Assembly (NCBI GenBank): GCA_024638505.1
Contig: JAHEKE010000007.1
Coordinates: 534 to 64,533 of the forward strand
Direction of reading: 5' to 3'
Origin: Gammaproteobacteria bacterium
Lineage (GTDB): Bacteria > Pseudomonadota > Gammaproteobacteria > Arenicellales > JAANXG01
DNA: 64,000 bases
Shown here: piece after piece, positions 299-61,029 of the stretch
Numbering within the stretch: position 1 is the first letter of the stretch
Layout: the number at the start of each line of letters is the position of its first letter
Program-made: the position numbers and the translations under genes
The notes under the pieces: model-generated
The model's database searches: none
What the model was told of the DNA's origin: nothing
What the model saw: only the letters and a program-made list of their open reading frames with translations

Positions 299-1885
299 AT
301 GTTTCATATTCTAGTTGCAGATAGCTTGGGCGAGGCCGGTATTGAGAGACTCCGGCTGGAATCCGATATTGAGATTGACGTCAAAACCGGTCTGACGAAA
401 GACCAGCTGGTGCAGGTCATTCCCCGTTACGATGCTTTAATCGTGCGCAGCGCAACCGTGGTGGATCAGGACGTACTTGCCGCAGCCCGCCGGCTGCGGG
501 TAGTCGGGCGGGCCGGCATAGGGGTTGACAACATTGATGTCAGAGCCGCTACCGCCAAGGGCGTTATCGTAATGAATACTCCGCAGGCAAACTCTATCGC
601 GACTGCGGAGCACACTATAGCGATGATGCTGGCAGTAAGTCGCCATATCGCGATTGCTCACGAGTCGGTAAGGCAGGGCCGGTGGGAGCGCGTAAAATTC
701 CAGGGTCAGCAGCTGTCCGGCAAGGTGCTGGGCATCATCGGCTTGGGGCAGATCGGGCGGTTGGTGGCGCACCGGGCGAAAGCATTCAATATGGAAATAA
801 TCGCCCATGATCCGTACGTATCCGAAGAGGTTGGGCGTGAAATGGAAGTATCGCTGGTGGATCTCGATCAGCTGCTGGCGCGGGCAGATTACGTTTCCCT
901 GCATACCAGCCTGTCGCACGAGACGGAGAGCATAATCAACGCGCGAACCTTGGGGCAAATGAAAACCAGCGCCATACTCATCAATCCGGCTCGAGGTAAA
1001 CTGGTCGATGAAGCCGCACTCGCTGCTGCGCTGGAAGCTGGCGGCATCCGGGCGGCAGCGCTTGATGTGTTCAGACAGGAACCGCCTGCCAAAAGTAATC
1101 CGCTGATTGGCATGCCGAACGTTCTGCATTTGCCGCACCTCGGGGCCAGTACCATGGAGGCGCAGAGAGACGTTGCGGTACAGATCGTCGAGCAGGTTCT
1201 GGATGCGCTACACAACAAAGATTTTCGCAACAGCGTAAACATGCCGTTCATTCCGGGTGCTGATTTTCAAAGAACAATGCCTTACATGAATCTAGCTGAA
1301 AAAATCGGGCGGCTGCATTTCCACATGGCCACGGGCCCGATCCGCAGCGTTGAGATCGAGTTGCAGGGCGATGCGGTTCAGGAACTGCTCAAGCCTATCG
1401 CAGCCGCCATTTTAAAAGGAGTGCTGCAGGGTTTTCTTGAGGATTCCGTTAACTACGTCAATGCTCCGATCCTGGCGGAACGGCATGGAATCACTGTAAT
1501 GCAGAGCAAAGGCATCAGCGCCGCACCCTACGCACATCTGATTTCCTGCCGGGTTCACTTTGAAGGGGGCAGCAGAACCATTTCCGGCGCTTTGTTCGGA
1601 GGCGTGCATCCGCGCATTGTCCAGGTTAGCAAGTACCATATGGATGTAGACCCAAGTGGCATCGTCCTGGTGATGTTGAACAAGGATACGCCAGGGGTGA
1701 TTGGTCAAATCGGCTCAATACTAGGTCAGCACCGAGTCAACATTGGTGAATGGCGCCTCGGGCGAGCGGAAAAAGGGGGCGACGCGCTGTCGTTCGTGAA
1801 TCTGGATAGTTATCCCTCTGCCGATGTCATCGCCGAGCTGAAGAACGTTCAGGCCGTAATAAAACTGGAAGTGCTGACGCTGTAA
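299..1885 (+). CDS. serA: D-3-phosphoglycerate dehydrogenase, long form with C-terminal ACT-type regulatory domain
   Basis: 2-hydroxyacid dehydrogenase fold with NAD motif GIIGLGQIGRLVA. About 525 aa with a long C-terminal extension. ATG at 299 preferred over TTG at 290. Confidence 0.9.
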   Translation: MFHILVADSLGEAGIERLRLESDIEIDVKTGLTKDQLVQVIPRYDALIVRSATVVDQDVLAAARRLRVVGRAGIGVDNIDVRAATAKGVIVMNTPQANSIATAEHTIAMMLAVSRHIAIAHESVRQGRWERVKFQGQQLSGKVLGIIGLGQIGRLVAHRAKAFNMEIIAHDPYVSEEVGREMEVSLVDLDQLLARADYVSLHTSLSHETESIINARTLGQMKTSAILINPARGKLVDEAALAAALEAGGIRAAALDVFRQEPPAKSNPLIGMPNVLHLPHLGASTMEAQRDVAVQIVEQVLDALHNKDFRNSVNMPFIPGADFQRTMPYMNLAEKIGRLHFHMATGPIRSVEIELQGDAVQELLKPIAAAILKGVLQGFLEDSVNYVNAPILAERHGITVMQSKGISAAPYAHLISCRVHFEGGSRTISGALFGGVHPRIVQVSKYHMDVDPSGIVLVMLNKDTPGVIGQIGSILGQHRVNIGEWRLGRAEKGGDALSFVNLDSYPSADVIAELKNVQAVIKLEVLTL

Positions 1886-1897
1886 CCCGGGCTTAGG

Positions 1898-3052
1898 TTA
1901 TGTTTTGTCAATCAAACGCAGTATGTTTGCCCGATCGGCGTTCAGTTCAGGGGCGGCGGAGCGCTCCCGTGGATCATCGAAATCCGACATCTTAATAGGG
2001 TTACCCGACATTTTCAGGTCACCGGCGACGGGGTCGCGGGTCTGGATAATCATGTTCCTGGCGCCGATCTGAGCGTCGTTGATCACTTGTTGAATGTTGT
2101 TGATCGGGCCGCACGGGACGCCCGCTTTGCTCAGGATAGATAACCACTCTAGCGCGGGTTTGACGCTCAGCGCTTGCTCAATCTCGGGCTTTAAAACGGC
2201 GTAATTCTTAGTACGCAGCGCATTGGATTCGAATCTTGAATCCTTGGCCAGGTCTTCTCGGTCGATTGCCTCGGACAGCTTTTTAAACAGCAGGTCGTTA
2301 CCCGCAGCAATCACGATGTATTCGCCGTTTATGCCAAACGAATCGAACGGGGTGATCGACGGATGGCGCGAGCCTAGCGGCCCGGGGATATCACCGTCGC
2401 TGAAAAAACGACTGACCGCGTTCTCTAAAATCGCGACCTGGCAATCGAGCATGCCAACGTCGACCATCATCCCTCTGCCGCTGCGCTGCCGATGGACTAC
2501 GGCGGAGAGAATTCCGGCAAGGCCAAACAGTCCGGCTGTAATGTCGCCGATGGACGTGCCTACGCGCACCGGATCCTGCCCCGGATGGCCAGTCACGCTC
2601 ATGATGCCGCCCATCGCCTGGACAACCATGTCGTACGCGGGGCGGGAGCGATAAGGGCCGGTCTGGCCGAAGCCCGAAATCGCGGCGTAGATAAGCCGAG
2701 GATTGAGTGTTTGCAGCGTATCCCAGTCGTAGCCGAGTTTATCCATGGTCCCCGGTCGATAGTTTTCTATCAGCAAGTCGGCTTTTTTAACCAGCGCTGC
2801 GAAAACCTGCCGGTCTTCGTCGGCCTTCAAATCCAGCGCGATGCTTTCCTTTCCCCGGTTGAGCGAAGCAAAGTAGGCCGATTTGCCCTTGATGAACGGG
2901 CCGAAATGCCGGGCGTCATCACCGACTTCCGGTATCTCAACTTTGATCACGCGTGCGCCAAGGTCGGCCAGCACCATCGTGGCATAGGGGCCGGCCAGCA
3001 CCCGCGTCAAGTCGATAACAAGCAATTGGTCCAGAGGCCCGGTTCTACTCAT
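1898..3052 (-). CDS. Family III CoA-transferase (CaiB/BaiF family)
   Basis: N-terminus LVIDLTRVLAGPYATMVLADLGARVIKVE is typical of CaiB/formyl-CoA transferase-like enzymes. Length 384 aa. Confidence 0.85.
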   Translation of the reverse strand: MSRTGPLDQLLVIDLTRVLAGPYATMVLADLGARVIKVEIPEVGDDARHFGPFIKGKSAYFASLNRGKESIALDLKADEDRQVFAALVKKADLLIENYRPGTMDKLGYDWDTLQTLNPRLIYAAISGFGQTGPYRSRPAYDMVVQAMGGIMSVTGHPGQDPVRVGTSIGDITAGLFGLAGILSAVVHRQRSGRGMMVDVGMLDCQVAILENAVSRFFSDGDIPGPLGSRHPSITPFDSFGINGEYIVIAAGNDLLFKKLSEAIDREDLAKDSRFESNALRTKNYAVLKPEIEQALSVKPALEWLSILSKAGVPCGPINNIQQVINDAQIGARNMIIQTRDPVAGDLKMSGNPIKMSDFDDPRERSAAPELNADRANILRLIDKT

Positions 3053-3246
3053 AGTGGATAGTCCTTGCTGCTATTGCGTGCTCACCTGAGCGACACCGTG
3101 CCGCCGACAGGAGACCAAACGAGATTTCATTAAGAACATGATCCTGGGTATCATACAGAGGCTTTGGTAATTTTCTTAAGAGCACGGCTTTAAACCGGTG
3201 CTGCATTCATGCTTTGATCAACCCATCTTAATCCGAGCGAGTCGGA

Positions 3247-4263
3247 ATGAAAATCGCCCAGTTTGCAGAATTTGGTCCGCCCCACGAGGTTGTGTCCTGC
3301 GTGGAGATTGATGAATTACCCGATCCCGTTGCCGATGAGGTGTTGCTTGAAATCGAGGCCTTTCCCATAAACCCCGCGGATCTGCTGACGCTGAGCGGAG
3401 ACTACGCGGTGCGTCCCAAGCTGCCGGCGAGCCTGGGGGCGGAAGGGGTAGGCCGCGTGGTTCAAGTAGGACCGGACGTACGGCAGATCTCCATAGGCGA
3501 CCGGGTACTCCCCCTGGGGCGTGACAACTGGGTACAAAGAAAAATTGAGAAAGAATCAAACGTAATCAGTCTGCCTAACATGGACGCGCACCAGGCCGCG
3601 ATGCTCAAGGTAAATCCGGCCACGGCCTGGTTTATGCTGCATGATTATGTCGCTCTGCAGCAGGGTGACATGCTGCTGCAGAACGCGGCCAATTCCGGGG
3701 TAGGTATGAATCTGATAAAAATGGCTGAGTCGCGCGGAATCAAGACGATAAATATCGTACGCCGACCGGAGCTTGTCCCCCTTTTGCAGGACAAGTACGG
3801 CGCGTTCGCCGTGCTGGTCTCAGGCCCGGATATTGCGGGTCAGGTGGCGGAGGTGGCGGGCGATAGTTCGCTGCAGCTTGGCGTCGACGCGGTCGGCGGT
3901 GAGGCAACGCGCCTGCTGGCAAAGTGCTTACAACCCGGGGGCACGGTGGTTAATTACGGCCTGTTATCCGGTCAACCCTGCGTAATCGATCCGCACGACC
4001 TGATATTTCGCGGCATCACCCTAACCGGCTTCTGGTTGGCGAAAACGCTTGGCGCAAGCGGGCGTGATCAACTGGAAAAGGTGTATGCTGAATTGAGCAA
4101 GCTGGTGGCGCAGAACGTATTGCATGTTCCGGTAGAAACTACCTATCCCATTGACCAGATAAAAGCAGCGGTGGCCCATGCCGGGCGATATGGCCGCAGC
4201 GGTAAGATAATCGTTTTGCCCAATCAACCGCACGCTGCGATGAATCGCTCTGTGCCCCATTGA
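3247..4263 (+). CDS. MDR-superfamily NAD(P)H-dependent oxidoreductase (quinone oxidoreductase / enoyl reductase-like)
   Basis: 338 aa with GroES-like N-terminal domain and Rossmann region NAANSGVGMNLIKMA. No Zn-ligand Cys pattern. Confidence 0.8.
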   Translation: MKIAQFAEFGPPHEVVSCVEIDELPDPVADEVLLEIEAFPINPADLLTLSGDYAVRPKLPASLGAEGVGRVVQVGPDVRQISIGDRVLPLGRDNWVQRKIEKESNVISLPNMDAHQAAMLKVNPATAWFMLHDYVALQQGDMLLQNAANSGVGMNLIKMAESRGIKTINIVRRPELVPLLQDKYGAFAVLVSGPDIAGQVAEVAGDSSLQLGVDAVGGEATRLLAKCLQPGGTVVNYGLLSGQPCVIDPHDLIFRGITLTGFWLAKTLGASGRDQLEKVYAELSKLVAQNVLHVPVETTYPIDQIKAAVAHAGRYGRSGKIIVLPNQPHAAMNRSVPH

Positions 4264-5252
4264 ACGACATCCCCATTATTGATCTGTCCGCACAGGCCGG
4301 CACGGAGGAAAAGCGCATCAGCATTGCCGGGCAGATATCCGAGGCATGTTCGCGCTGGGGGTTTTTCTATGCGCTGCACCACGGTATCTCTGATGAGTTG
4401 ATACAGCGTGTTTGGCGGCAGACCCACCACTTTTTCTCGCTGCCGAGGCAGGAAAAATTAAAGATTTTACGCTCAAAAGAAAATCCGCGCGGATACTATG
4501 ATCGCGAGCTGACTAAAAACACGCGCGATCTCAAAGAGGTGTTTGACTTCGGGCGAGTGCCGCACCCGGAACTCCCGGACGACCACGCCGCTAACCGCGA
4601 TCGCATCAACGGCTATAACCGCTGGCCAGACCTCGCCGGCTTTAAGTCGACCATGGAGGAGTATTTCAACGCTTGTGAAAGCCTGGGTTTACGGTTGCTC
4701 GAACTTTTCTGTCTGGGGATGGGTTCACCGGCGCACGCCATGCGTACAGAATTTGAGCCGGATCATACGAGCTTTATCCGCTTGAACTACTATCCTCTTG
4801 AGGACCCGCTAGAAACAGAGGTGACGGCGCAGGTTACCGCTCTGGGTGACATGGCTCTGCAGCATCACAGCGACGCTGGGGCGCTTACCATCCTGTTGCA
4901 GGACGAGGTAGGAGGCCTTCAGGTCCACGCCGGGGGCAGGTGGTGGGACGTGGAGCCGATACCGGGCACCCTGGTAATCAACACCGCAGATATGATGCAG
5001 GTCTGGTCCAATGATCGATACCGCGCGCCGCTGCACCGGGTTCTGCCGATCAAAGACCAGCCGAGGTACAGCATCCCATTCTTTTTCAATCCTTCATACG
5101 CGACTGACTGTGCTCCGCTTGAGTCTTTGCTTGACAAAGAGGATGCGCATTATCGGCCGATAAACTGGGGGACTTTCCGCCAGCTGCGTACCGACGGCGA
5201 CTATGCCGATTATGGCAAAGAGGTGCAGCTGGGCGAATACCGCAACTGTTGA
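4260..5252 (+). CDS. 2-oxoglutarate/Fe(II)-dependent oxygenase (isopenicillin N synthase-like family)
   Basis: N-terminus IPIIDLS. HxD motif in LQHHSDAG, distal His in APLHRV, RYSIPFF near the C-terminus. TTG start overlaps the upstream stop (TTGA). Confidence 0.8.
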   Translation: MNDIPIIDLSAQAGTEEKRISIAGQISEACSRWGFFYALHHGISDELIQRVWRQTHHFFSLPRQEKLKILRSKENPRGYYDRELTKNTRDLKEVFDFGRVPHPELPDDHAANRDRINGYNRWPDLAGFKSTMEEYFNACESLGLRLLELFCLGMGSPAHAMRTEFEPDHTSFIRLNYYPLEDPLETEVTAQVTALGDMALQHHSDAGALTILLQDEVGGLQVHAGGRWWDVEPIPGTLVINTADMMQVWSNDRYRAPLHRVLPIKDQPRYSIPFFFNPSYATDCAPLESLLDKEDAHYRPINWGTFRQLRTDGDYADYGKEVQLGEYRNC

Positions 5253-6663: not shown

Positions 6664-6678
6664 ACAAAGTTTATTTGT
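6664..6678. promoter_or_regulatory. Inverted repeat ACAAA-N5-TTTGT just upstream of pcaD (candidate operator)
   Basis: Read directly: acaaagtttatttgt, ending 13 nt before the pcaD start codon. Confidence 0.25.
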
Positions 6679-6690
6679 GGTACTTTTAGT

Positions 6691-7494
6691 GTGATGAGAT
6701 TCATCGATCTCAACCATTTGACTGTGAATATAGCCACGGAAGGCACGCATGGGGCACCCACGCTGGTGTTCATTAATTCACTCGGTACCGACTTTCGTAT
6801 TTGGGACGAGGTTTTACCCGCGTTTGCATCTCACTTTTATCTGGTGCGTTATGATAAACGTGGGCACGGCCTGTCCGATGCACCCGCGGGGGAATATCGT
6901 TTACAGGACCATATCAGTGATCTGCACGCACTGCTCGCCAAACTCAACGTCAGGCAGGCGATTCTGTGCGGCGTTTCGGTAGGAGGCATGATCGCTCAGG
7001 GCCTGTGTGCGCAGCACCCGGACCGGGTGCTGGCCCTGGTGCTGTGCGATACTGCCGCCAAAATCGGGACGATCGAACTGTGGAATGAACGAATCGATGG
7101 CGTTACACATGCAGGCATTGCGTCGATTGCAGACAACATCCTGCAACGCTGGTTTTCAAGTGATTTTCATCAACAAAGAGCGGTCGAGCTGTCGGGGTGG
7201 CGCAACATGCTGACGCGTACGCCTGTTACCGGCTATGCTGGAACCTGTGCTGCCATTCGTGATGCGGACTTGACCGAGTCGGTGCGGACCATTACCTGTC
7301 CTGCGCTGGCGGTATGTGGGGATCAAGATGGCGCGACGCCTCCCGATGTTGTACGTACTCTAGTGGATCTAATACCAGACTGCCGGTTTAAGCTGATCAA
7401 AGGAGCGGGTCATCTTCCCAGCATTGAACAGCCCGAAGTCTTGATCAACTGCATGACGTCCTTTTTCAAGGAGATAAATGTTGGCGGACTCTGA
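6691..7494 (+). CDS. pcaD: 3-oxoadipate enol-lactonase (alpha/beta hydrolase)
   Basis: Alpha/beta-hydrolase with nucleophile elbow GVSVGG. Sits directly upstream of pcaC/HG. GTG at 6691 or ATG at 6694. Confidence 0.8.
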   Translation: MMRFIDLNHLTVNIATEGTHGAPTLVFINSLGTDFRIWDEVLPAFASHFYLVRYDKRGHGLSDAPAGEYRLQDHISDLHALLAKLNVRQAILCGVSVGGMIAQGLCAQHPDRVLALVLCDTAAKIGTIELWNERIDGVTHAGIASIADNILQRWFSSDFHQQRAVELSGWRNMLTRTPVTGYAGTCAAIRDADLTESVRTITCPALAVCGDQDGATPPDVVRTLVDLIPDCRFKLIKGAGHLPSIEQPEVLINCMTSFFKEINVGGL

Positions 7495-7882
7495 CTATGA
7501 TGCGGGCATGAGCCGGCGTCGACAGGTGCTTGGACGCAACCACGTGGCTCAGGCGGAGGCTGACAAAACACCGTTTGATTCCCGTTTTCAGCAATACATT
7601 ACTGAATCCGCGTGGGGTGCGGTTTGGTCGGACCCGACCATAGACCTGCGCACCCGCAGCCTGTTGACCATTGCGCTGCTGGCTGCGCTTGGCCATGAAA
7701 AAGAGTTGGCTATGCACGTACGGGCGACCGGGCAAACGGGTGTCACTGCCGAAGAGGTGAGAGAAGCCTTAATGCACGTTGCAGTCTATGCGGGGGTTCC
7801 CGCCGCTAATCGAGCGTTCGCCATCGCCAAGCGCGCGCTGGCAGAGGCAGCGGCAGTTGGCGGGAGTCAAAAGCTGGAATGA
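7478..7882 (+). CDS. pcaC: 4-carboxymuconolactone decarboxylase
   Basis: 134 aa of the carboxymuconolactone decarboxylase family (YDAGMSRRRQVLG..., AVYAGVPAA). Overlaps pcaD by 17 nt. Confidence 0.85.
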   Translation: MLADSDYDAGMSRRRQVLGRNHVAQAEADKTPFDSRFQQYITESAWGAVWSDPTIDLRTRSLLTIALLAALGHEKELAMHVRATGQTGVTAEEVREALMHVAVYAGVPAANRAFAIAKRALAEAAAVGGSQKLE

Positions 7883-8586
7883 CCGACTCTGAGTATTCTA
7901 AACGGGACTGGCAGTGTCACCCGCCATACCGGCATGATCCTTACAAGTCGACCAGCTTACGCGGCCCGCGCCAGCCGCTGGTGCCCATCAAGCATACCTT
8001 GTCTGAGATCACCGGGCCGATTTACGGGCATGGTGATATCGATCCTGTGGATAGTGATTTGACCAGGAATGCAACCCGTGGCGGCGAAGCGCTGGGTGAA
8101 CGCATCATTGTAACCGGCCGCGTGCTGGACGACAGAGGCAGGCCGGTATCCGGCACCCTGATCGAGGTCTGGCAGGCTAATGCCGCCGGTCGCTACATCC
8201 ACAAAGTTGACCAGCACGATGCGCCAATAGATCCCAACTTCTTCGGCGCAGGCCGCTTTCTAACGGATGATGACGGTCGGTACAGGATGATCACGGTGAA
8301 ACCTGGGGCATATCCATGGGGCAATCACCCCAACGCCTGGCGGCCTTCGCATATCCATTTCTCAATCCTTGGCCCGTGCATTGCGACCCGGCTGGTGACG
8401 CAGATGTATTTTCCAGGCGACCCACTGCTCCCTTATGATCCTATATTCAATTCAACACCCGACGTGAAGGCGCGGCAGCGCTTAGTCGCCAATTTTTCCC
8501 TGGATATCACCGAACCAGGGCGGGCGCTGGGCTACGAGTTTGATATTGTTCTGCGTGGCCGAGACGAGACGCCAACGGAACAGTGA
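7879..8586 (+). CDS. pcaH: Protocatechuate 3,4-dioxygenase beta subunit
   Basis: Intradiol dioxygenase motifs WQANAAGRY and PSHIHFSI. ATGA overlap with pcaC. Confidence 0.9.
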   Translation: MTDSEYSKRDWQCHPPYRHDPYKSTSLRGPRQPLVPIKHTLSEITGPIYGHGDIDPVDSDLTRNATRGGEALGERIIVTGRVLDDRGRPVSGTLIEVWQANAAGRYIHKVDQHDAPIDPNFFGAGRFLTDDDGRYRMITVKPGAYPWGNHPNAWRPSHIHFSILGPCIATRLVTQMYFPGDPLLPYDPIFNSTPDVKARQRLVANFSLDITEPGRALGYEFDIVLRGRDETPTEQ

Positions 8587-39882: not shown

Positions 39883-40842
39883 TTAATACAGTTTTGTCGG
39901 ATCCATCCCGCGATAAAGGGAGGCGACCTGCTCGCCGTAGCCATTAAAAGGAAGCGTTGGTCTTTTAAGAAACTCACCTATGCGGCGTTCACGGGCCTGG
40001 CTCCAGCGGGGATGCGGGACTTCGGGATTGACGTTGGCGTAGAAGCCGTATTCGCGCGGTGCCTGCGCCTGCCAGGTATTGAGCGGTTGGTCTTCGCTCA
40101 GTTTGATTTTGACTATGGATTTAATGCTCTTAAACCCATACTTCCAGGGTACGACCAAACGAATGGGTGCGCCGTTCTGTCCCGGTAATTCTTCTCCATA
40201 CAGTCCCACTGCCAGGATTGTCAGCGGATGAACAGCTTCATCGATACGCAACCCCTCACGATAGGGCCAGTCCAGAACACTGCCAAACAAACTCTTGTGC
40301 TGGCCCGGCATACGCTCCGGGTCATACAGTGTCTCAAATTCGACGTACTTGGCACGTGAGTTGGGCTCAGCGTGGGCGATGAGTTTGTGTAATGGAAATC
40401 CCACCCACGGAACCACCATAGACCAGGCTTCAACGCAGCGCAGCCGGTAAATGCGCTCTTCCAGATCGAAAAGTTTGATCAGTTCATCCACATCAAAGGT
40501 CTTGGGGCGATTCACCTCTCCTGCAACCTCTAACGTCCACGGCCGGCTTTTGAAATCTCGCGCGAGTTCCGCCGGGCCGCGTTTATCGGTAGAAAATTCG
40601 TAAAAATTGTTATAGGTCGTGACGGCTTTATACGGCGTGAGTTCCTCATTCGTACTGAACGCACTTTTTTGCAGGCTTTCAAACACAAGTTTGGCCTGTG
40701 TAACCGGGCTGTGCAGCAGCATAGGGACAGCGCCCAAGGCGAGCATAGCGCCGCTGGTTTTTATGAATTCGCGACGCCTTTTGAACATGACATAGTCCGT
40801 TATCTCCGATGCTTTGATGTCCCGTGGTTTATTAATCAGCAT
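39883..40842 (-). CDS. msrP: Protein-methionine-sulfoxide reductase catalytic (molybdopterin) subunit
   Basis: Tat signal [18 protein letters not shown]. YedY-type sulfite-oxidase fold ([21 protein letters not shown]). Confidence 0.9.
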
Positions 40843-41002
40843 GGCGGTGTGTCTTCACCCATGTCTTTTCCGATTTGGATTAGAAAATGTGTTAAACGAC
40901 AAAGTTTATGGATTTTGAAGATTTTTACCAGCTACGATTTTAACCTTTGCCAAAGAGTTTTAGCCTGGACGGCTCTATGACTTAGGCTATTCTTTAGTAA
41001 TC

Positions 41003-41227
41003 ATGAGTCGATCAATGAAAAGATCTAAAATAGACCGCCGCGGCGTGTCTGATTTGAGCTACTTTGCCCGGGGTGGGGCCGAGCGGCGCGACTATGCTGA
41101 GAGAAGGGACGGCGCTGAACCGACAGCAAAAAACACGCCCAATCTCCTGGATCGTGCAGCCTGGGCGGGTATTGTGCTGCTGGGCATCGTTGCCACCGTG
41201 TTGCTGATAAACATCCTGTCGCAATAA
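41003..41227 (+). CDS. Arg-rich small protein, paralog A (C-terminal hydrophobic helix)
   Basis: Shares DRR..SDLSYFARGGAERR..ERR with ORFs B and C. Ends in AAWAGIVLLGIVATVLLINIL. No clear SD. Confidence 0.45.
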   Translation: MSRSMKRSKIDRRGVSDLSYFARGGAERRDYAERRDGAEPTAKNTPNLLDRAAWAGIVLLGIVATVLLINILSQ

Positions 41228-41252
41228 AAGCCTGTACCCACCAGTCACTGCC

Positions 41253-41444
41253 TCAATCTGGCTTGGGCACGCTGCTCCAATGGTCGACCCGAGCCCAGTT
41301 TTTTCGACGCTCCTTCTTCACGCGTCGCTCTGATCCAGCGCGTCTCTCTACCCCGCCGCACGCGAAATACTCCAAGTCGTGAGCCTGCCGTCGATCATTT
41401 CCTGAGCGGCGGTCACGAATCGACCTTTTGTTCGTTTCATTCAT
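41253..41444 (-). CDS. Arg-rich small protein, paralog B
   Basis: RDRRSGNDRRQAHDLEYFACGGVERRAGSERR...WARVDHWSSV. ATG at 41444 preceded by GAGGG at 8 nt. Confidence 0.55.
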   Translation of the reverse strand: MNETNKRSIRDRRSGNDRRQAHDLEYFACGGVERRAGSERRVKKERRKNWARVDHWSSVPKPD

Positions 41445-41822
41445 GGGTGCTACCCTCAACCGATGTCTTGAGCAATTGCCTTAGTTAAAAGCATAGTTGG
41501 TGCTGCCCATTCCGCTACTTAACTTAACTTCTAAGTTTTAAGCGATAAGTTATTGTATGTGAAAGGAGCTCTACTGACTAAAGAACGCCCGCCAAGCCAT
41601 GAAAATGCCTGTCCCAAAGCGGGAAACCAGAGGCAGGCGCGGAAATGCATGGAAAAATATTTATTAATTATAGAGGGTTAGAGCGCAAATCTAATCTTTG
41701 ATGAGAGGTATTTTTTGGCTTTGACCGCGGTAATAGACATCTCTGGCCCTGTATTTGGCAAGTCATGTAATATTTGACTTAAACGCCCTGTATTGTTGTA
41801 AATCTATGCCCATTCCCTGTCT

Positions 41823-42053
41823 TTGCACGTGAGTTGGATCAACCGGAGGTCTGGAATAGATAGGCGTTATGGCGTTGAGCGAAGACGAGTGCATGACCTC
41901 ACTTATTTCAAACGAGGTGGAATTGAGCGACGAAGCGGTGACGAACGCCGTAAAACCCCTGAACTCAGGGAGGATTGGGTGCGAATCGACCGCTGGAGCA
42001 GCGTAAAAAGAAGCGTAATTTTGGACCCTGAAGAGTACTTTCCCCTGCCCTGA
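41823..42053 (+). CDS. Arg-rich small protein, paralog C
   Basis: IDRRYGVERRRVHDLTYFKRGGIERRSGDERR...WVRIDRWSSV. TTG or GTG start with no clear SD. Confidence 0.5.
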   Translation: MHVSWINRRSGIDRRYGVERRRVHDLTYFKRGGIERRSGDERRKTPELREDWVRIDRWSSVKRSVILDPEEYFPLP

Positions 42054-42204
42054 CGCTGGGCTCCTAGGCGGGGGTTTACAACAGTTTTGTGCGACCGTTA
42101 TGCGTTGCGCCAGCTGTAAATTTACCCGAGATGCCGTTATCTCCTCCCGCATGGACTAGACTTTGTAGGATACAAACGGGAGTACGATCTCCGGGGGTAG
42201 TCGA

Positions 42205-42621
42205 ATGACGGGAATGAGGCTGAAAGAAGCGCGTAAGGAGGCGGGCCTCACGCTCGAAAAATTGGCAGCAGAAGCCGGTGTCAGTAAGCAATCGATCGCC
42301 TTGATAGAGTCGGGAAAGACGAAAGGCCCGCGATCCGACACTTTATTCAAGATTGCCGATACGCTGGGAGTTGAACCAAGATGGCTGGTAACCGGTTCGG
42401 GTCCTAAACAGCGCAACAACCACGGTAATATCAATCAAGAGTTACTGGCAAGCATTGCCGCGTCGATCAGTTCGTCCGCCCAAGAACGAGAGATCAAATT
42501 GACGGCGGAACAGTTTGCTGAACTGGTAGCGTACATTTACGATGCACAGATGTCCGGCAGGTTTGACCAGGACCCGCTGTCCACGCTAATTGCCTTCGCA
42601 GCTAACCTCGACAGTGGGTGA
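42205..42621 (+). CDS. XRE-family (Cro/CI-type HTH) transcriptional regulator
   Basis: LKEARKEAGLTLEKLAAEAGVSKQSIALIESGKT HTH, plus an uncharacterised C-terminal half. Confidence 0.8.
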   Translation: MTGMRLKEARKEAGLTLEKLAAEAGVSKQSIALIESGKTKGPRSDTLFKIADTLGVEPRWLVTGSGPKQRNNHGNINQELLASIAASISSSAQEREIKLTAEQFAELVAYIYDAQMSGRFDQDPLSTLIAFAANLDSG

Positions 42622-42654
42622 AGATCCGAGGTGATTTTCCGTGCGGTGCCCGCG

Positions 42655-44385
42655 CTACGCTGGCGCCATATCTCTTGTCTTGATGCGTCGTGCGAGCCAG
42701 GAAAAAAAGTAGCCTCGGGGTGGATCGATTCCCGTTGCCAGGTAATACAGCGTGTAGGGATTGTTCAAGTTTGCCAGCAACATCCGTTCACCCTGTTCGG
42801 TACCGCAGAAAACGATTTCGTCACCGCGTAGAACTTGCTCTGAGTCATCCGGTAACATTATGCATTGGCCATCACGCTGAATCATCAGCGGCACAGAGGC
42901 CAGCGCATGAGTAGGTTGTTGTGGGTTTTTTATCAGGTCCTCGAGTCTGAGCTCGCCTCCAGCTTTGAGCAGCTGGGTCGCCGCAGCTGCCTCGGAATCG
43001 CACAGATTAGCCCTCCACAGATGAGGGATCCGTTCTCCAACCGCGTTGTTGAGCCGGCGGATGAGATACTGCGTCGCGGCCTCGTCCTGCGTCCGCAGGT
43101 GGTCAATCAGCGTCTGTATCAGCGGTGAGATGAGATACTTCAGGATTCTGCGGGCCGTGGTCAGGCTGGATTGCAGAGTCAAGTTAGCACTTGCAGCATC
43201 GAAGGCCAGCTGGTTTTCGTGGTTGTTCTGCCGGACGATACTAAACGCGTCGGGATTGAGGGCCTGCACGTTCAACAAAATACTGAGGTTGTCGGAATCG
43301 CTGTTGGTACAGGCGACAATGCCTGCTGCTTTCTCCACACCTGCGCGTTCGAGGGTCTTGCGGTCGGCGTGGGCCCGAATCAACCGTCCTGCGGCAGCGG
43401 TTTCTTCGGCATCCGGGTCAATTATGGTCGAACGAACCCCCTGCCCCACCATGTATTTGTCAATCCACTGCCCCATGCGGCCGTAGCCACACAGTATCCA
43501 ATCCCCGGTTGGGACATTCAGCGGGTTTCCCAACTGCACGCCGTGTGCCCGCACCAGCCAGCTGTTCAGGTTATGTAGCCAAGGATGGGTGATCGCCATA
43601 CTCAGCAGCTGCGCGAAGATCTCAAACGGGTCAATCACAGTTACGTTTCCCATCTCCTTTAAATGTTCCTCGTGGCGCAATGAAGTCGAGCTGCAGACCA
43701 CTTTTACATCGGGATTAAGAAACTTTGCCATGACGGTAATTTTGAGGCTGACGTCCTCATCATTGATCAGCACGACCACACCTTTACAGTTGCTTTGCTT
43801 GACACCTGCATCAACCAGATGTTTGGGCACGCTGGCATCAGCGCACAGGCCCGGCATCCTGATTTTATAATCGCGTAATCCCAGCGCCTTAATGCGTTCC
43901 AGATCGCTGTCGATGATGACCGCTGCAAGCCCGTGGTCACTCAGCCCGCGCGCCAGTAGGCTGCCGGTGTCACCAAACCCGCAAATGATGAAAAACGGCT
44001 CCGAGATTCGTTTTACCGTGCGGGCAAAACTCCTCTCGTTGACGGCCTGGATAAAATGAGGATTTTGTAGGAGACGAATGGTTGAGCCGATGGCATAAAA
44101 CCAGGCGATAACTCCCGTGTATAGGCAAAAAATTGCCCACAGTCTCTGCTGGTCACTGAATTCGCTGGGTATCTCGCCAAACCCGGTGGTGGTGGCGGTG
44201 TAAGTAAAGAAATAGAAAGCGTGAAACAGGCTCATGTATTCCGGATTCCCGTCCACGTCACGACCGGGGATCAGCGCCATGCCGGTAATGCCAACGGCGT
44301 AAACGAGCACGATGGCGAAGAATGGTCTGCGCATATAGCGCAGAACGACCATAGAGACCCGATCGAGCTCGGAGGTGGAAGCCAA
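42655..44385 (-). CDS. Two-TM potassium-channel-family protein with two RCK/TrkA-N domains
   Basis: Pore helix and filter YTATTTGFGEIP. Rossmann motifs ICGFGDTGSLLA and LCGYGRMGQ. Start is TTG 44385 or ATG 44352. Confidence 0.8.
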   Translation of the reverse strand: MASTSELDRVSMVVLRYMRRPFFAIVLVYAVGITGMALIPGRDVDGNPEYMSLFHAFYFFTYTATTTGFGEIPSEFSDQQRLWAIFCLYTGVIAWFYAIGSTIRLLQNPHFIQAVNERSFARTVKRISEPFFIICGFGDTGSLLARGLSDHGLAAVIIDSDLERIKALGLRDYKIRMPGLCADASVPKHLVDAGVKQSNCKGVVVLINDEDVSLKITVMAKFLNPDVKVVCSSTSLRHEEHLKEMGNVTVIDPFEIFAQLLSMAITHPWLHNLNSWLVRAHGVQLGNPLNVPTGDWILCGYGRMGQWIDKYMVGQGVRSTIIDPDAEETAAAGRLIRAHADRKTLERAGVEKAAGIVACTNSDSDNLSILLNVQALNPDAFSIVRQNNHENQLAFDAASANLTLQSSLTTARRILKYLISPLIQTLIDHLRTQDEAATQYLIRRLNNAVGERIPHLWRANLCDSEAAAATQLLKAGGELRLEDLIKNPQQPTHALASVPLMIQRDGQCIMLPDDSEQVLRGDEIVFCGTEQGERMLLANLNNPYTLYYLATGIDPPRGYFFSWLARRIKTRDMAPA

Positions 44386-59663: not shown

Positions 59664-60035
59664 CTACATGGTGTGGGTGGGACGGTTGGATTGAAGAGCG
59701 CCGCCGAGAATGGCTTCGATTTTGGTGCGGGCGACATCTTCTTTTGCGCTGAACTGCACGCCAACGCCTGCCGCACGGTTGCCCTGCGCGCCGACCGGGG
59801 TAATCCAGACCACGTTGCCTGCGACGGGTATTTTTTCCTGGTCCTGTAGCAGGGTCAGTAACATGAATACCTCTTCACCTAGCTCGTATGATTTGTTAGT
59901 GGGGACGAATAACCCGCCGCCCCTTAAAAACGGCATATAGGCAGCGTAAAGGGCGCTTTTATCCTTTATGGTTAGAGAGAGAACGGTAGGTCTCGGACCG
60001 CCGTTTTCCAGTTTGACCCCTTGTTCAGCCATCAT
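59664..60035 (-). CDS. pilZ: PilZ-domain protein (type IV pilus assembly PilZ)
   Basis: About 120 aa. LSLTIKDKSALYAAYMPFLRGGGLFVPT. Conserved position after holB. Confidence 0.8.
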   Translation of the reverse strand: MMAEQGVKLENGGPRPTVLSLTIKDKSALYAAYMPFLRGGGLFVPTNKSYELGEEVFMLLTLLQDQEKIPVAGNVVWITPVGAQGNRAAGVGVQFSAKEDVARTKIEAILGGALQSNRPTHTM

Positions 60036-61029
60036 GTTGCATCATCGCATTGAGTTCCAGCAAGAAATCTTCTAATACAAGGTTTTTATCTAGCGGAGCG
60101 CTTGTATCTTGTAAATAAGAACCGACTCTGTCGATTAGGGAAAACACCCTTTTTAAGTGTAGGCGTTTTACTGAACCTTGCAACCAGTTCAGCTGATCCG
60201 GGTTGAATAGATCTGGTGGATTGGCCTGAAAACTGACCCTAACGAGGTCTATCAGTGTGTTTCTTAATATAGGTAGGGACAAGTCTACGCCAAGATCTTT
60301 CCATTTTGCGGCGATGTTCGTGACGTCCACCGGTCCGGCCAGAACGCTCTGAATATCCCGCATTACCTGCGCGCGGTGCCGTAAAAGCCCACTCTGCAGC
60401 ATGCGGGCCGCCAGCAGCGGGGCCCCACCGGCGATACTTAGTGCCAGAGGTAAATCATCACCGACTGCCCCATGCGCCGCCAGCCATTCAAGCGCCTGGG
60501 CGGCCGGAGGTTTTGCAAACTTAACGTGGGAACACCTGCTGCGCAGCGTTGCCGGTAAACCATCCGGGTTGCTGCTCACCAGTATGAAGATGGTGGCAGA
60601 CGGGGGCTCCTCTAAAACCTTCAACAGCGCATTAGTCGCATTGATATTCATGGTATGTGCCGGTGAAATCAGTACTACTTTGTTCGCGCCAGAGGCATAG
60701 GTAATTAAAGCGCTGATCAAAGCCCGAACCTGATCTACCGAAATAACTGATCTCGGCTTAATTCCCTTTCTGCTTAAGTTATAGCGCATGCCGTATCGCT
60801 GCAGCAGATTTCCTTCACCATCCGACTGATCTTCCGGTGTCAGCACGTGAAAATCGGGATGAGAGGCGGCGATGAAATTTCTTGGTTGGCCAAGCAGCTC
60901 CCTGGCATAGTCCAGGGCCAGTTCAACCTTGCCTAAACCCTCTGCACCGATAAACAGCAAGGCATGCGGATTGCGCTCCCGCTCCCGCGTCAGGTTTTGC
61001 CAGATGGCATTATTCCAGGGTGTAACCAA
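60025..61029 (-). CDS. holB: DNA polymerase III subunit delta'
   Basis: HALLFIGAEGLGK, HPDFHVL, LKVLEEPP. TTG start overlapping the tmk end. Confidence 0.85.
   Translation of the reverse strand: MVTPWNNAIWQNLTRERERNPHALLFIGAEGLGKVELALDYARELLGQPRNFIAASHPDFHVLTPEDQSDGEGNLLQRYGMRYNLSRKGIKPRSVISVDQVRALISALITYASGANKVVLISPAHTMNINATNALLKVLEEPPSATIFILVSSNPDGLPATLRSRCSHVKFAKPPAAQALEWLAAHGAVGDDLPLALSIAGGAPLLAARMLQSGLLRHRAQVMRDIQSVLAGPVDVTNIAAKWKDLGVDLSLPILRNTLIDLVRVSFQANPPDLFNPDQLNWLQGSVKRLHLKRVFSLIDRVGSYLQDTSAPLDKNLVLEDFLLELNAMMQHDG

Follow-up and report, generated by a model that had tools for sequence, protein, structure and literature searches.

A 64,000-nucleotide (nt) stretch of contig JAHEKE010000007.1 (the window; positions 534 to 64,533 of the forward strand, assembly GCA_024638505.1), from a gammaproteobacterium of the Arenicellales, encodes three small arginine-rich proteins in the interval between msrP and a gene for an XRE regulator. 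The three genes, which we refer to as A, B and C, are paralogs of long standing within one small-protein family. We consider it almost certain that all three are coding and that they belong to a new family, which comprises a large, unannotated set of small (approximately 60–100 amino acids (aa)) cytoplasmic proteins. The best reading of this family, which we advance tentatively and by analogy with known systems, is that its members may be binders of, or adaptors for, cyclic di-GMP (c-di-GMP) that fold when the ligand is bound.

Three paralogous small genes

Gene A (41003–41227, + strand) encodes a 74-aa family member with a predicted C-terminal transmembrane (TM) helix, and its core (residues 11–35; 41033–41107, + strand) has the form DRR-x6-YF-x2-GG-x-ERR-x3-ERR, the block common to all three paralogs (for example, DRRQAHDLEYFACGGVERRAGSERR). 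Gene B (41253–41444, − strand) encodes a soluble member of 63 aa that runs from an ATG at 41444, with GAGGG 8 nt upstream, to a stop codon at 41253–41255; an alternative TTG start at 41459 would give 68 aa. Its domain, delimited from alignments (residues 11–59; 41268–41414, − strand), reads DRRSGNDRR-QAHDLEYFACGG-VERRAGSERRVKKERR-KNWARVDHWSSV. Gene C (41829–42053, + strand) encodes a soluble member whose domain (residues 11–59 counted from GTG 41829; 41859–42005, + strand) reads DRRYGVERR-RVHDLTYFKRGG-IERRSGDERR-KTPELREDWVRIDRWSSV. The initial annotation had located the three open reading frames (ORFs) and quoted their peptide blocks and codons correctly, and it had given C as 76 aa; this is indeed the longest ORF, opening at TTG 41823, but the start probably lies elsewhere. 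GTG 41829, which gives 74 aa beginning MSWINRRSG, is the likelier start because the N-terminus and length then match those of the closest C homologs (MSQINRRSG, MNRINRRSG and MSIINRRSG, in P0001/P0002 and the ortholog at locus L006). Homologs of C (P0001–P0003) are 69–77% identical to it, and orthologs of A (P0007–P0010), which begin at the first Met, are 71–78% identical; an exact 70-aa form of A (P0006, start at M5) is present in NCBI and Logan assemblies. A 129-aa ORF antisense to gene C (41763–42152, − strand) is almost certainly spurious, since gene C on the opposite strand is under purifying selection.

B and C are identical at 32 of 56 residues (57%; E 2e-21), and A and C share a 34-residue core with 18 of 34 residues identical (E 1e-9). 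A six-frame scan of the whole 64-kb window with a hidden Markov model (HMM) of the family accepted only A, B and C; a weak match at 1099–1260 was rejected as a fourth paralog, being out of frame within a 531-aa ORF (290–1885). Scored with the family HMM, B gives E 2.5e-27 and C 1.8e-25. When the paralogs were aligned by codon, their nucleotide identity was 45–52%, with a proportion of synonymous differences (pS) of at least 0.84, which is saturated, and a proportion of nonsynonymous differences (pN) of 0.31–0.45. Because synonymous sites are saturated, the three copies are not a DNA repeat, in agreement with what had been concluded from a handful of codons, and the combination of saturated pS with this pN rules out such an explanation. 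The only match that blastn returned between paralogs was a residual 19-nt one between B and C, and two apparent inverted repeats, I1 and I2, proved to be merely residual coding similarity of B and C.

Comparison with related genomes points to strong purifying selection on all three proteins. Five near-identical metagenomic contigs (L001–L005) are 99.0–99.7% identical to the window over a 1.9-kb region and differ from it by 19 variants; all three variants that fall within ORFs are synonymous (B has two, A one and C none), and 11 of the 19, at 10 sites, lie in the spacer between B and C (41445–41828). In a more distant relative, L104 (~72% nucleotide identity), the order msrP-A-B-...-C-XRE-K+ channel is preserved with all three frames intact, and pN is 0.126, 0.146 and 0.161 against pS of 0.634, 0.839 and 0.740 for A, B and C, respectively, which corresponds to a dN/dS ratio (omega) of roughly 0.1 or less (~0.10 for A against its L104 ortholog). 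An Arenicellales metagenome-assembled genome (MAG) carries a C-type ortholog (L006) and a B-type ortholog (L007) on separate contigs, and dN/dS between C and the former is ~0.13; further B orthologs are the syntenic copies in L104–L106. Related genomes thus hold homologs in which the frames are kept, and the proposal that the three are divergent paralogs conserved at the protein level is borne out both by their mutual similarity and by pN against pS in L104.

We also considered that A, B and C might be chance ORFs or non-coding DNA, such as a repeat, an RNA gene or the remnant of a pseudogene. In the public contigs examined (L001–L005, L104–L106), A is called as a gene, C sometimes and B in none; B and C are both uncalled in L001–L005, and in L104 a 45-aa ORF just upstream of the B ortholog (1568–1705, − strand) is called instead of B. 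Furthermore, A and C lack a strong upstream Shine–Dalgarno sequence, and a terminator scan together with folding of the gene ends found nothing beyond chance in the way of clear terminators. Against this stand the protein-level E-values of 1e-9 to 2e-21 and the hundreds of homolog clusters described below, the low pN alongside saturated pS, the synonymous nature of every variant within an ORF, the GC fraction of the ORFs (0.55–0.58) versus that of the B–C spacer (~0.41), and the absence of any Rfam 15 match at E ≤ 1 in window positions 40500–42700. We regard this alternative as effectively refuted and assign it a negligible probability.

A family missing from domain databases

Single-sequence word-indexed searches returned five relatives per query, and an exhaustive profile search was needed to reveal how large the family is: at 50% identity it comprises 558 clusters with E ≤ 1e-3, 165 of them with E ≤ 1e-10, nearly all of 60–120 aa. 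In a database clustered at 90% identity, the profile search retrieved at least 1,330 proteins (clusters); among the best 120, every entry named by its source was a "hypothetical protein", several came from Desulfobacterales MAGs and none contained a Pfam domain. A, B and C themselves had no match in Pfam (at E up to 10) or NCBIfam, the family profile found nothing among PDB sequences, and PADLOC and PHROGs likewise held no match to the family. No Rfam family, riboswitches included, reached its gathering score at 12 homolog loci, and a literature search for the peptide motifs of the family returned nothing relevant. The view that the motif belongs to no named family or characterised domain is borne out by these searches. 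Members are found mainly in Desulfobacterales-type sediment bacteria and in Arenicellales, and their genes usually stand alone in varied, often housekeeping, neighbourhoods.

The family domain is approximately 55 aa long, with the consensus RS..DRRSG.DRR...DL.YF..GG.ERR...ERR...ERR.GW.RVS.WSSV. It contains four to five [DE]RR triplets, most of which form G-x-[DE]-R-R units, together with an aromatic/Gly block and a hairpin at the C-terminus that is rich in Trp, and its near-invariant positions are these triplets, the Y/F, the GG and the W...W.S. B and C consist of 21–22% Arg and have a net charge of +6 to +8. An AlphaFold2 model of C built from a 104-sequence alignment was mostly coil, with a mean predicted local distance difference test score (pLDDT) of 60 and a predicted template modelling score (pTM) of 0.38, and pLDDT exceeded 70 only in the hairpin of the WVR...WSSV tail. 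This model suggests that the domain is not folded on its own.

Some members appear to be attached to the membrane. In A, the Kyte–Doolittle hydropathy mean over 19 residues reaches 2.49 at residues 55–73 of 74, a clear TM segment, whereas the maxima of B and C are below zero. A single C-terminal helix preceded by a basic N-terminal domain that fits the positive-inside rule is what a tail-anchored protein would have, and the helix is conserved in the A orthologs P0007–P0010. Other members carry TM helices independently: a C-terminal one in the unrelated P0148, and N-terminal ones in P0046, P0056, P0062 and P0072. These helices are flanked by basic residues, and in the TM variants the basic domain would face the cytoplasm. 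The suggestion in the initial annotation that A is membrane-anchored is thereby supported, and we class A as a probable tail-anchored variant on the basis of its hydropathy and conservation.

Two unrelated loci elsewhere encode pairs of paralogs, in tandem in L054 (4596–5174) and 2.6 kb apart in L057 (1019–1258 and 3897–4112). Each pair consists of a canonical member and a member of a second subtype, without DLxYF and with F[FY]R.G.ERR and a C-terminal DLKIS[KR]FLK, which suggests that the two subtypes are maintained together; the trio in the window is therefore one case of a wider tendency. Other architectures were seen as well. In an uncultured Desulfobacteraceae, a protein of ~214 aa (L008, 5995–6639) has the family core with extra DRR repeats at its start, followed by a ~130-aa domain with no Pfam match, and downstream of it the adjacent gene, on the other strand (6672–8132), has by eye the look of a membrane-bound PP2C/SpoIIE-type phosphatase. 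Segments with Cys pairs that read like zinc ribbons are apparent at the N-terminus of P0074 and the C-terminus of P0093, the latter giving only a weak Pfam match, to zf-H2C2_5 (E 0.014).

Likeness to c-di-GMP-binding peptides and PilZ neighbours

A peptide of CleD binds an intercalated c-di-GMP dimer through the motif DRR-x11-[R/K]RxxD and is unfolded in the apo state, and an alanine scan of the CSP, a peptide that sequesters c-di-GMP, identified D154, R155, R156, Y163, G165, R167–R169 and D172 as critical residues (Hee et al. 2020, PMC7382256); the core of the CleD arginine-rich segment (ARR) is a tandem of [Y/F]xGP[D/E][R/K]R (2017, PMC5677366). The near-invariant positions of the family match these critical residues in residue type and in order. 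Among 278 family sequences, 240 contain [DE]RR-x6-[YFW], which places the aromatic residue at +7 from the second Arg, as Y163 is from R156 in CleD, 237 contain [YF]-x1-3-G-x-[DE]RR, and the full ordered pattern [DE]RR-x6-[YFW]-x2-5-G-x1-3-RR-x2-3-[DE] is found in 192. There are 2.3 G-x-[DE]-[RK]-R units per family protein versus 0.04 in shuffled sequences. The core of B, DRR-QAHDLE-Y-FAC-GG-V-ERR-AGS-E, illustrates how residues of the CleD types follow one another in the same order, and this CleD-like core is exactly the stretch that all three paralogs have in common.

The family also resembles the CleD ARR and the CSPs in being short, linear and rich in Arg, in its predicted lack of a fold before ligand is bound, in repeating units of the G-x-[DE]-[RK]-R type preceded by an aromatic residue, and in having a small hydrophobic or aromatic β-hairpin segment. 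However, the hairpin is C-terminal in the family and N-terminal in CleD, the family has four to five [DE]RR triplets instead of two units, and its members are free-standing or membrane-anchored, whereas the CleD ARR is a C-terminal extension of a Rec domain; A, B, C and essentially all matches are 60–120 aa long with no Pfam domain and hence have no CheY-like receiver domain. The two also differ in distribution, the CleD ARR being alphaproteobacterial and the family belonging to Desulfobacterales-type sediment bacteria and Arenicellales. The resemblance, judged on sequence, is at the level of pattern only, and we do not file the family as a Cle ARR.

A second lead came from gene neighbourhoods. 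From 103 loci we retained 66 that were non-redundant, and their 114 nearest flanking ORFs were compared with Pfam. PilZ led the neighbour families, with 7 of the 114 ORFs (L006, L012, L022, L066, L080, L092 and L102; Pfam E 5e-20 to 3.7e-4), and every other family occurred at most twice. All seven PilZ genes lie upstream of the family gene, co-directional or divergent, at a distance of 49 to ~700 nt; an eighth PilZ gene, in L057, is immediately downstream. The control consisted of 150 ORFs situated more than 1.5 kb away at the same loci: PilZ is missing from the Pfam families listed for them (those with at least two members), and a crude local PilZ HMM gave no match, which yields a Fisher p of 0.0025 for adjacency. 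At least four of the PilZ neighbours have the canonical RxxxR and [DN]xSxxG motifs. In addition, the 213-aa protein P0132 joins a family member to a C-terminal PilZ-like region; the match is weak (Pfam E 0.0058, below the gathering score), covers profile positions 10–100 and lacks the RxxxR region, and an AlphaFold2 model from the single sequence (pLDDT 35) was unusable. Upstream of the PilZ and C-type pair of L006, four paralogous small ORFs (53–81 aa; 3489–5014) have a common N-terminal motif, M..I..FF..dG.W.V, and a hydrophobic helix, and this cluster looks like another unannotated family of small membrane proteins.

PilZ (PF07238) is a canonical c-di-GMP receptor, in which a flexible, Arg-rich N-terminal segment bearing RxxxR wraps the ligand. 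The family shares with it an Arg-rich segment, and the two are further linked by the neighbourhood enrichment and the P0132 fusion; unlike PilZ, the family has neither a β-barrel nor [DN]xSxxG nor a Pfam match, and its members are roughly half as large and predicted to be disordered. There is likewise some similarity to the RxxD I-site of GGDEF domains, as an Arg is followed by an acidic residue three to four positions later: RR-x3-[DE] is present in all 278 family sequences, and RRxxD in C and in 102 of the 278. The I-site, however, belongs to a folded domain, whereas the family repeats its motif, mostly as RxxxE, in a free peptide.

Our leading candidate for the ligand is c-di-GMP, and binding of c-di-GMP by the family is, by analogy, a possibility that we would put somewhat short of an even chance. 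The domain, probably disordered alone, would fold around an anionic, guanine-containing ligand, probably intercalated c-di-GMP dimers, possibly more than one dimer because each domain has four to five units. As in the CleD ARR and CSP peptides, the arginines would read Hoogsteen edges, the conserved Tyr, Phe and Trp would stack on the bases and the acidic residues would act as caps. Family members would then be c-di-GMP mini-receptors, adaptors or buffers, often working alongside a PilZ protein, with A acting at the inner face of the membrane, B and C acting in the cytosol, and B and C transcribed divergently from their shared, poorly conserved spacer. A more specific version, which we consider unlikely although worth stating, is that the proteins are free-standing natural counterparts of the CSPs, widespread in sediment Desulfobacterota and some Gammaproteobacteria: with four to five [DE]RR units in tandem, each protein would capture at least one intercalated c-di-GMP dimer by coupled folding, and the messenger would be buffered, or passed to PilZ partners, by soluble (B, C) and membrane-tethered (A) versions.

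Several observations weigh against c-di-GMP as the ligand. Arg-rich disordered peptides bind many polyanions, so that composition alone is non-specific. The exact CSP motif DRR-x11-[R/K]RxxD occurs in none of the 278 family sequences, A, B and C included, which instead have DRR-x14-RR-x3-[DE]; the exact ARR unit [YF]xGP[DE][RK]R occurs in one, and the spacings from Tyr to RR and from RR to the acidic residue are 2–4 residues longer than in CleD. The family HMM aligns with the CSPs in the expected register (GPDRRRFNSADY against GeDrRkaydldY), and its scores against CSP1 and CSP2, 3.3–3.8 bits, are not significant when set against composition-matched shuffles (95th percentile 3.3 bits, 99th 5.3 bits). 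The PilZ association becomes weaker, with p rising to 0.014 when the count is limited to the five nearest ORFs that were picked automatically, and to 0.02–0.09 when one PilZ is assumed to have been missed in the control. Approximately 85–90% of family loci have no adjacent PilZ gene (~10–13% have one), and the trio itself is among those without; the nearest PilZ ORF in the window is 17.6 kb away (59667–60041, − strand; 125 aa; Pfam E 5.9e-13 over profile positions 9–100, apparently without the RxxxR start) and was rejected as an ortholog of the PilZ neighbour in L006, with which it gave a BLASTP E of only 0.005. Neither the window nor 342 kb of family loci yielded signatures of GGDEF, EAL or HD-GYP domains, and Rfam identified no c-di-GMP riboswitch in window positions 40500–42700 or at the 12 homolog loci.

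Flanking genes and competing functions

The trio is preceded by a molybdopterin oxidoreductase and ferric-reductase-like pair consistent with msrP/msrQ, and C is followed by an HTH_3/XRE regulator (42205–42621, + strand; Pfam HTH_3 1.3e-16) and then by a TrkA-N/Ion_trans_2 K+ channel gene and a DUF6394 gene. These flanks are as the initial annotation had them; its description of the region as gene-poor does not hold, as the region contains three genes and one presumed divergent promoter spacer. The XRE neighbour is real in the window and recurs after C in close relatives (L001–L003, L104), but it does not extend to the family at large: at more distant loci for which public gene calls exist, no XRE gene is called beside family members, and HTH_3 is not among the neighbour families listed for the 114 flanking ORFs, so we rejected XRE as a family-wide partner. 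The B–C spacer is 363–384 nt long, in line with the ~360 nt of non-coding DNA first noted, is weakly constrained and presumably holds both promoters. It is not alignable to L104, where a gene for a 746-aa patatin/Omp85 protein (1769–4009) is inserted between B and C within the poorly conserved spacer; B and C therefore need not share one regulatory region. A σ70 scan gave one − strand site (41580–41552), no better than chance expectation. σ54 promoters were not enriched upstream of family genes relative to a reverse-complement control, and a σ54 candidate upstream of C, TGGCCC-N5-TTGGC, was rejected for lack of the −12 GC.

Nucleic acid is another possible ligand, and the proteins could be Arg-rich RNA- or DNA-binding mini-proteins (RNA chaperones, ribosome or nucleoid factors, or small regulators) that fold on their target. 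The arginine content and net charge of B and C, the conserved aromatics combined with predicted disorder, which are typical of Arg-rich nucleic-acid-binding peptides, the stand-alone genes in varied neighbourhoods and the XRE gene adjoining C in close relatives all fit this alternative. Arginine-rich-motif (ARM) peptides such as those of λ N and HIV Tat and Rev are, like the family, short, Arg-rich and disordered until bound; they are, however, basic runs without a regular acidic partner, an aromatic/Gly block or membrane anchors, and no RNA partner is evident for the family, Rfam having revealed no neighbouring RNA element in the window region or at the 12 loci. The invariant acidic residue before every Arg pair dilutes the charge and would be unusual in such motifs, ribosome or nucleoid roles sit badly with membrane-tethered variants such as A, and the PilZ adjacency and PilZ-like fusion are left unexplained, which together make nucleic-acid binding improbable in our estimation.

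We rate as rather less plausible a role at the membrane, in which the proteins would be peripheral or tail-anchored and their Arg/Trp-rich domain would bind anionic phospholipids or modulate a channel or transporter from the cytoplasmic face. The TM helices of A and several unrelated members speak for it, as do the alignment of the Trp-rich GW.R...WSS end of soluble members with the start of the helix of A, the K+ channel gene near the trio in both the window and L104, and genes for a mechanosensitive channel, a Na/Ca exchanger and an AI-2E transporter at some other loci. Yet no family of membrane proteins recurs beside the family (each accounts for at most 2 of the 114 flanking ORFs), most members have no hydrophobic segment, and the strict conservation of [DE]RR, Y and G exceeds what lipid binding would need. 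Finally, the proteins might partner PilZ proteins independently of any nucleotide, as antagonist, chaperone or output adaptor, given that PilZ is the sole enriched neighbour, lies upstream in seven of eight adjacent cases and appears weakly in the P0132 fusion; the low share of loci with an adjacent PilZ gene, its absence beside the trio and conserved residues of the kind that nucleotide contacts, not a protein interface, would call for make this a poor candidate. From the repeated Arg pairs, the initial annotation had speculated about nucleic-acid, nucleotide or polyanion binding, with c-di-GMP among the ligands it named; that idea, still a conjecture, is now backed by two independent leads, the PilZ enrichment and the pattern-level likeness to CleD, which point by analogy to c-di-GMP.

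Four points are new: the size of the family, the lack of any entry for it in domain databases, the adjacency to PilZ genes and a likeness, in residue order, to the critical positions of Cle and the CSPs. Gene callers repeatedly miss members, as with B in the public contigs, which marks an annotation gap. Whatever the ligand, a large and strongly conserved small-protein domain, with hundreds of clusters at 50% identity and no database entry, has been defined. To our knowledge, the known c-di-GMP receptors account for only part of c-di-GMP biology, and we know of one linear peptide-type binding motif, the Cle ARR, reported almost solely in alphaproteobacterial CheY-like proteins. If the family does bind c-di-GMP, it would constitute a second and much more widespread peptide-type receptor; if its members are natural counterparts of the engineered c-di-GMP-sequestering peptides, they would form a new class of very small receptors that has been missed by domain databases and often by gene callers. 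If c-di-GMP is bound, orphan PilZ proteins of the environmentally dominant sulfate reducers would also gain a possible partner.

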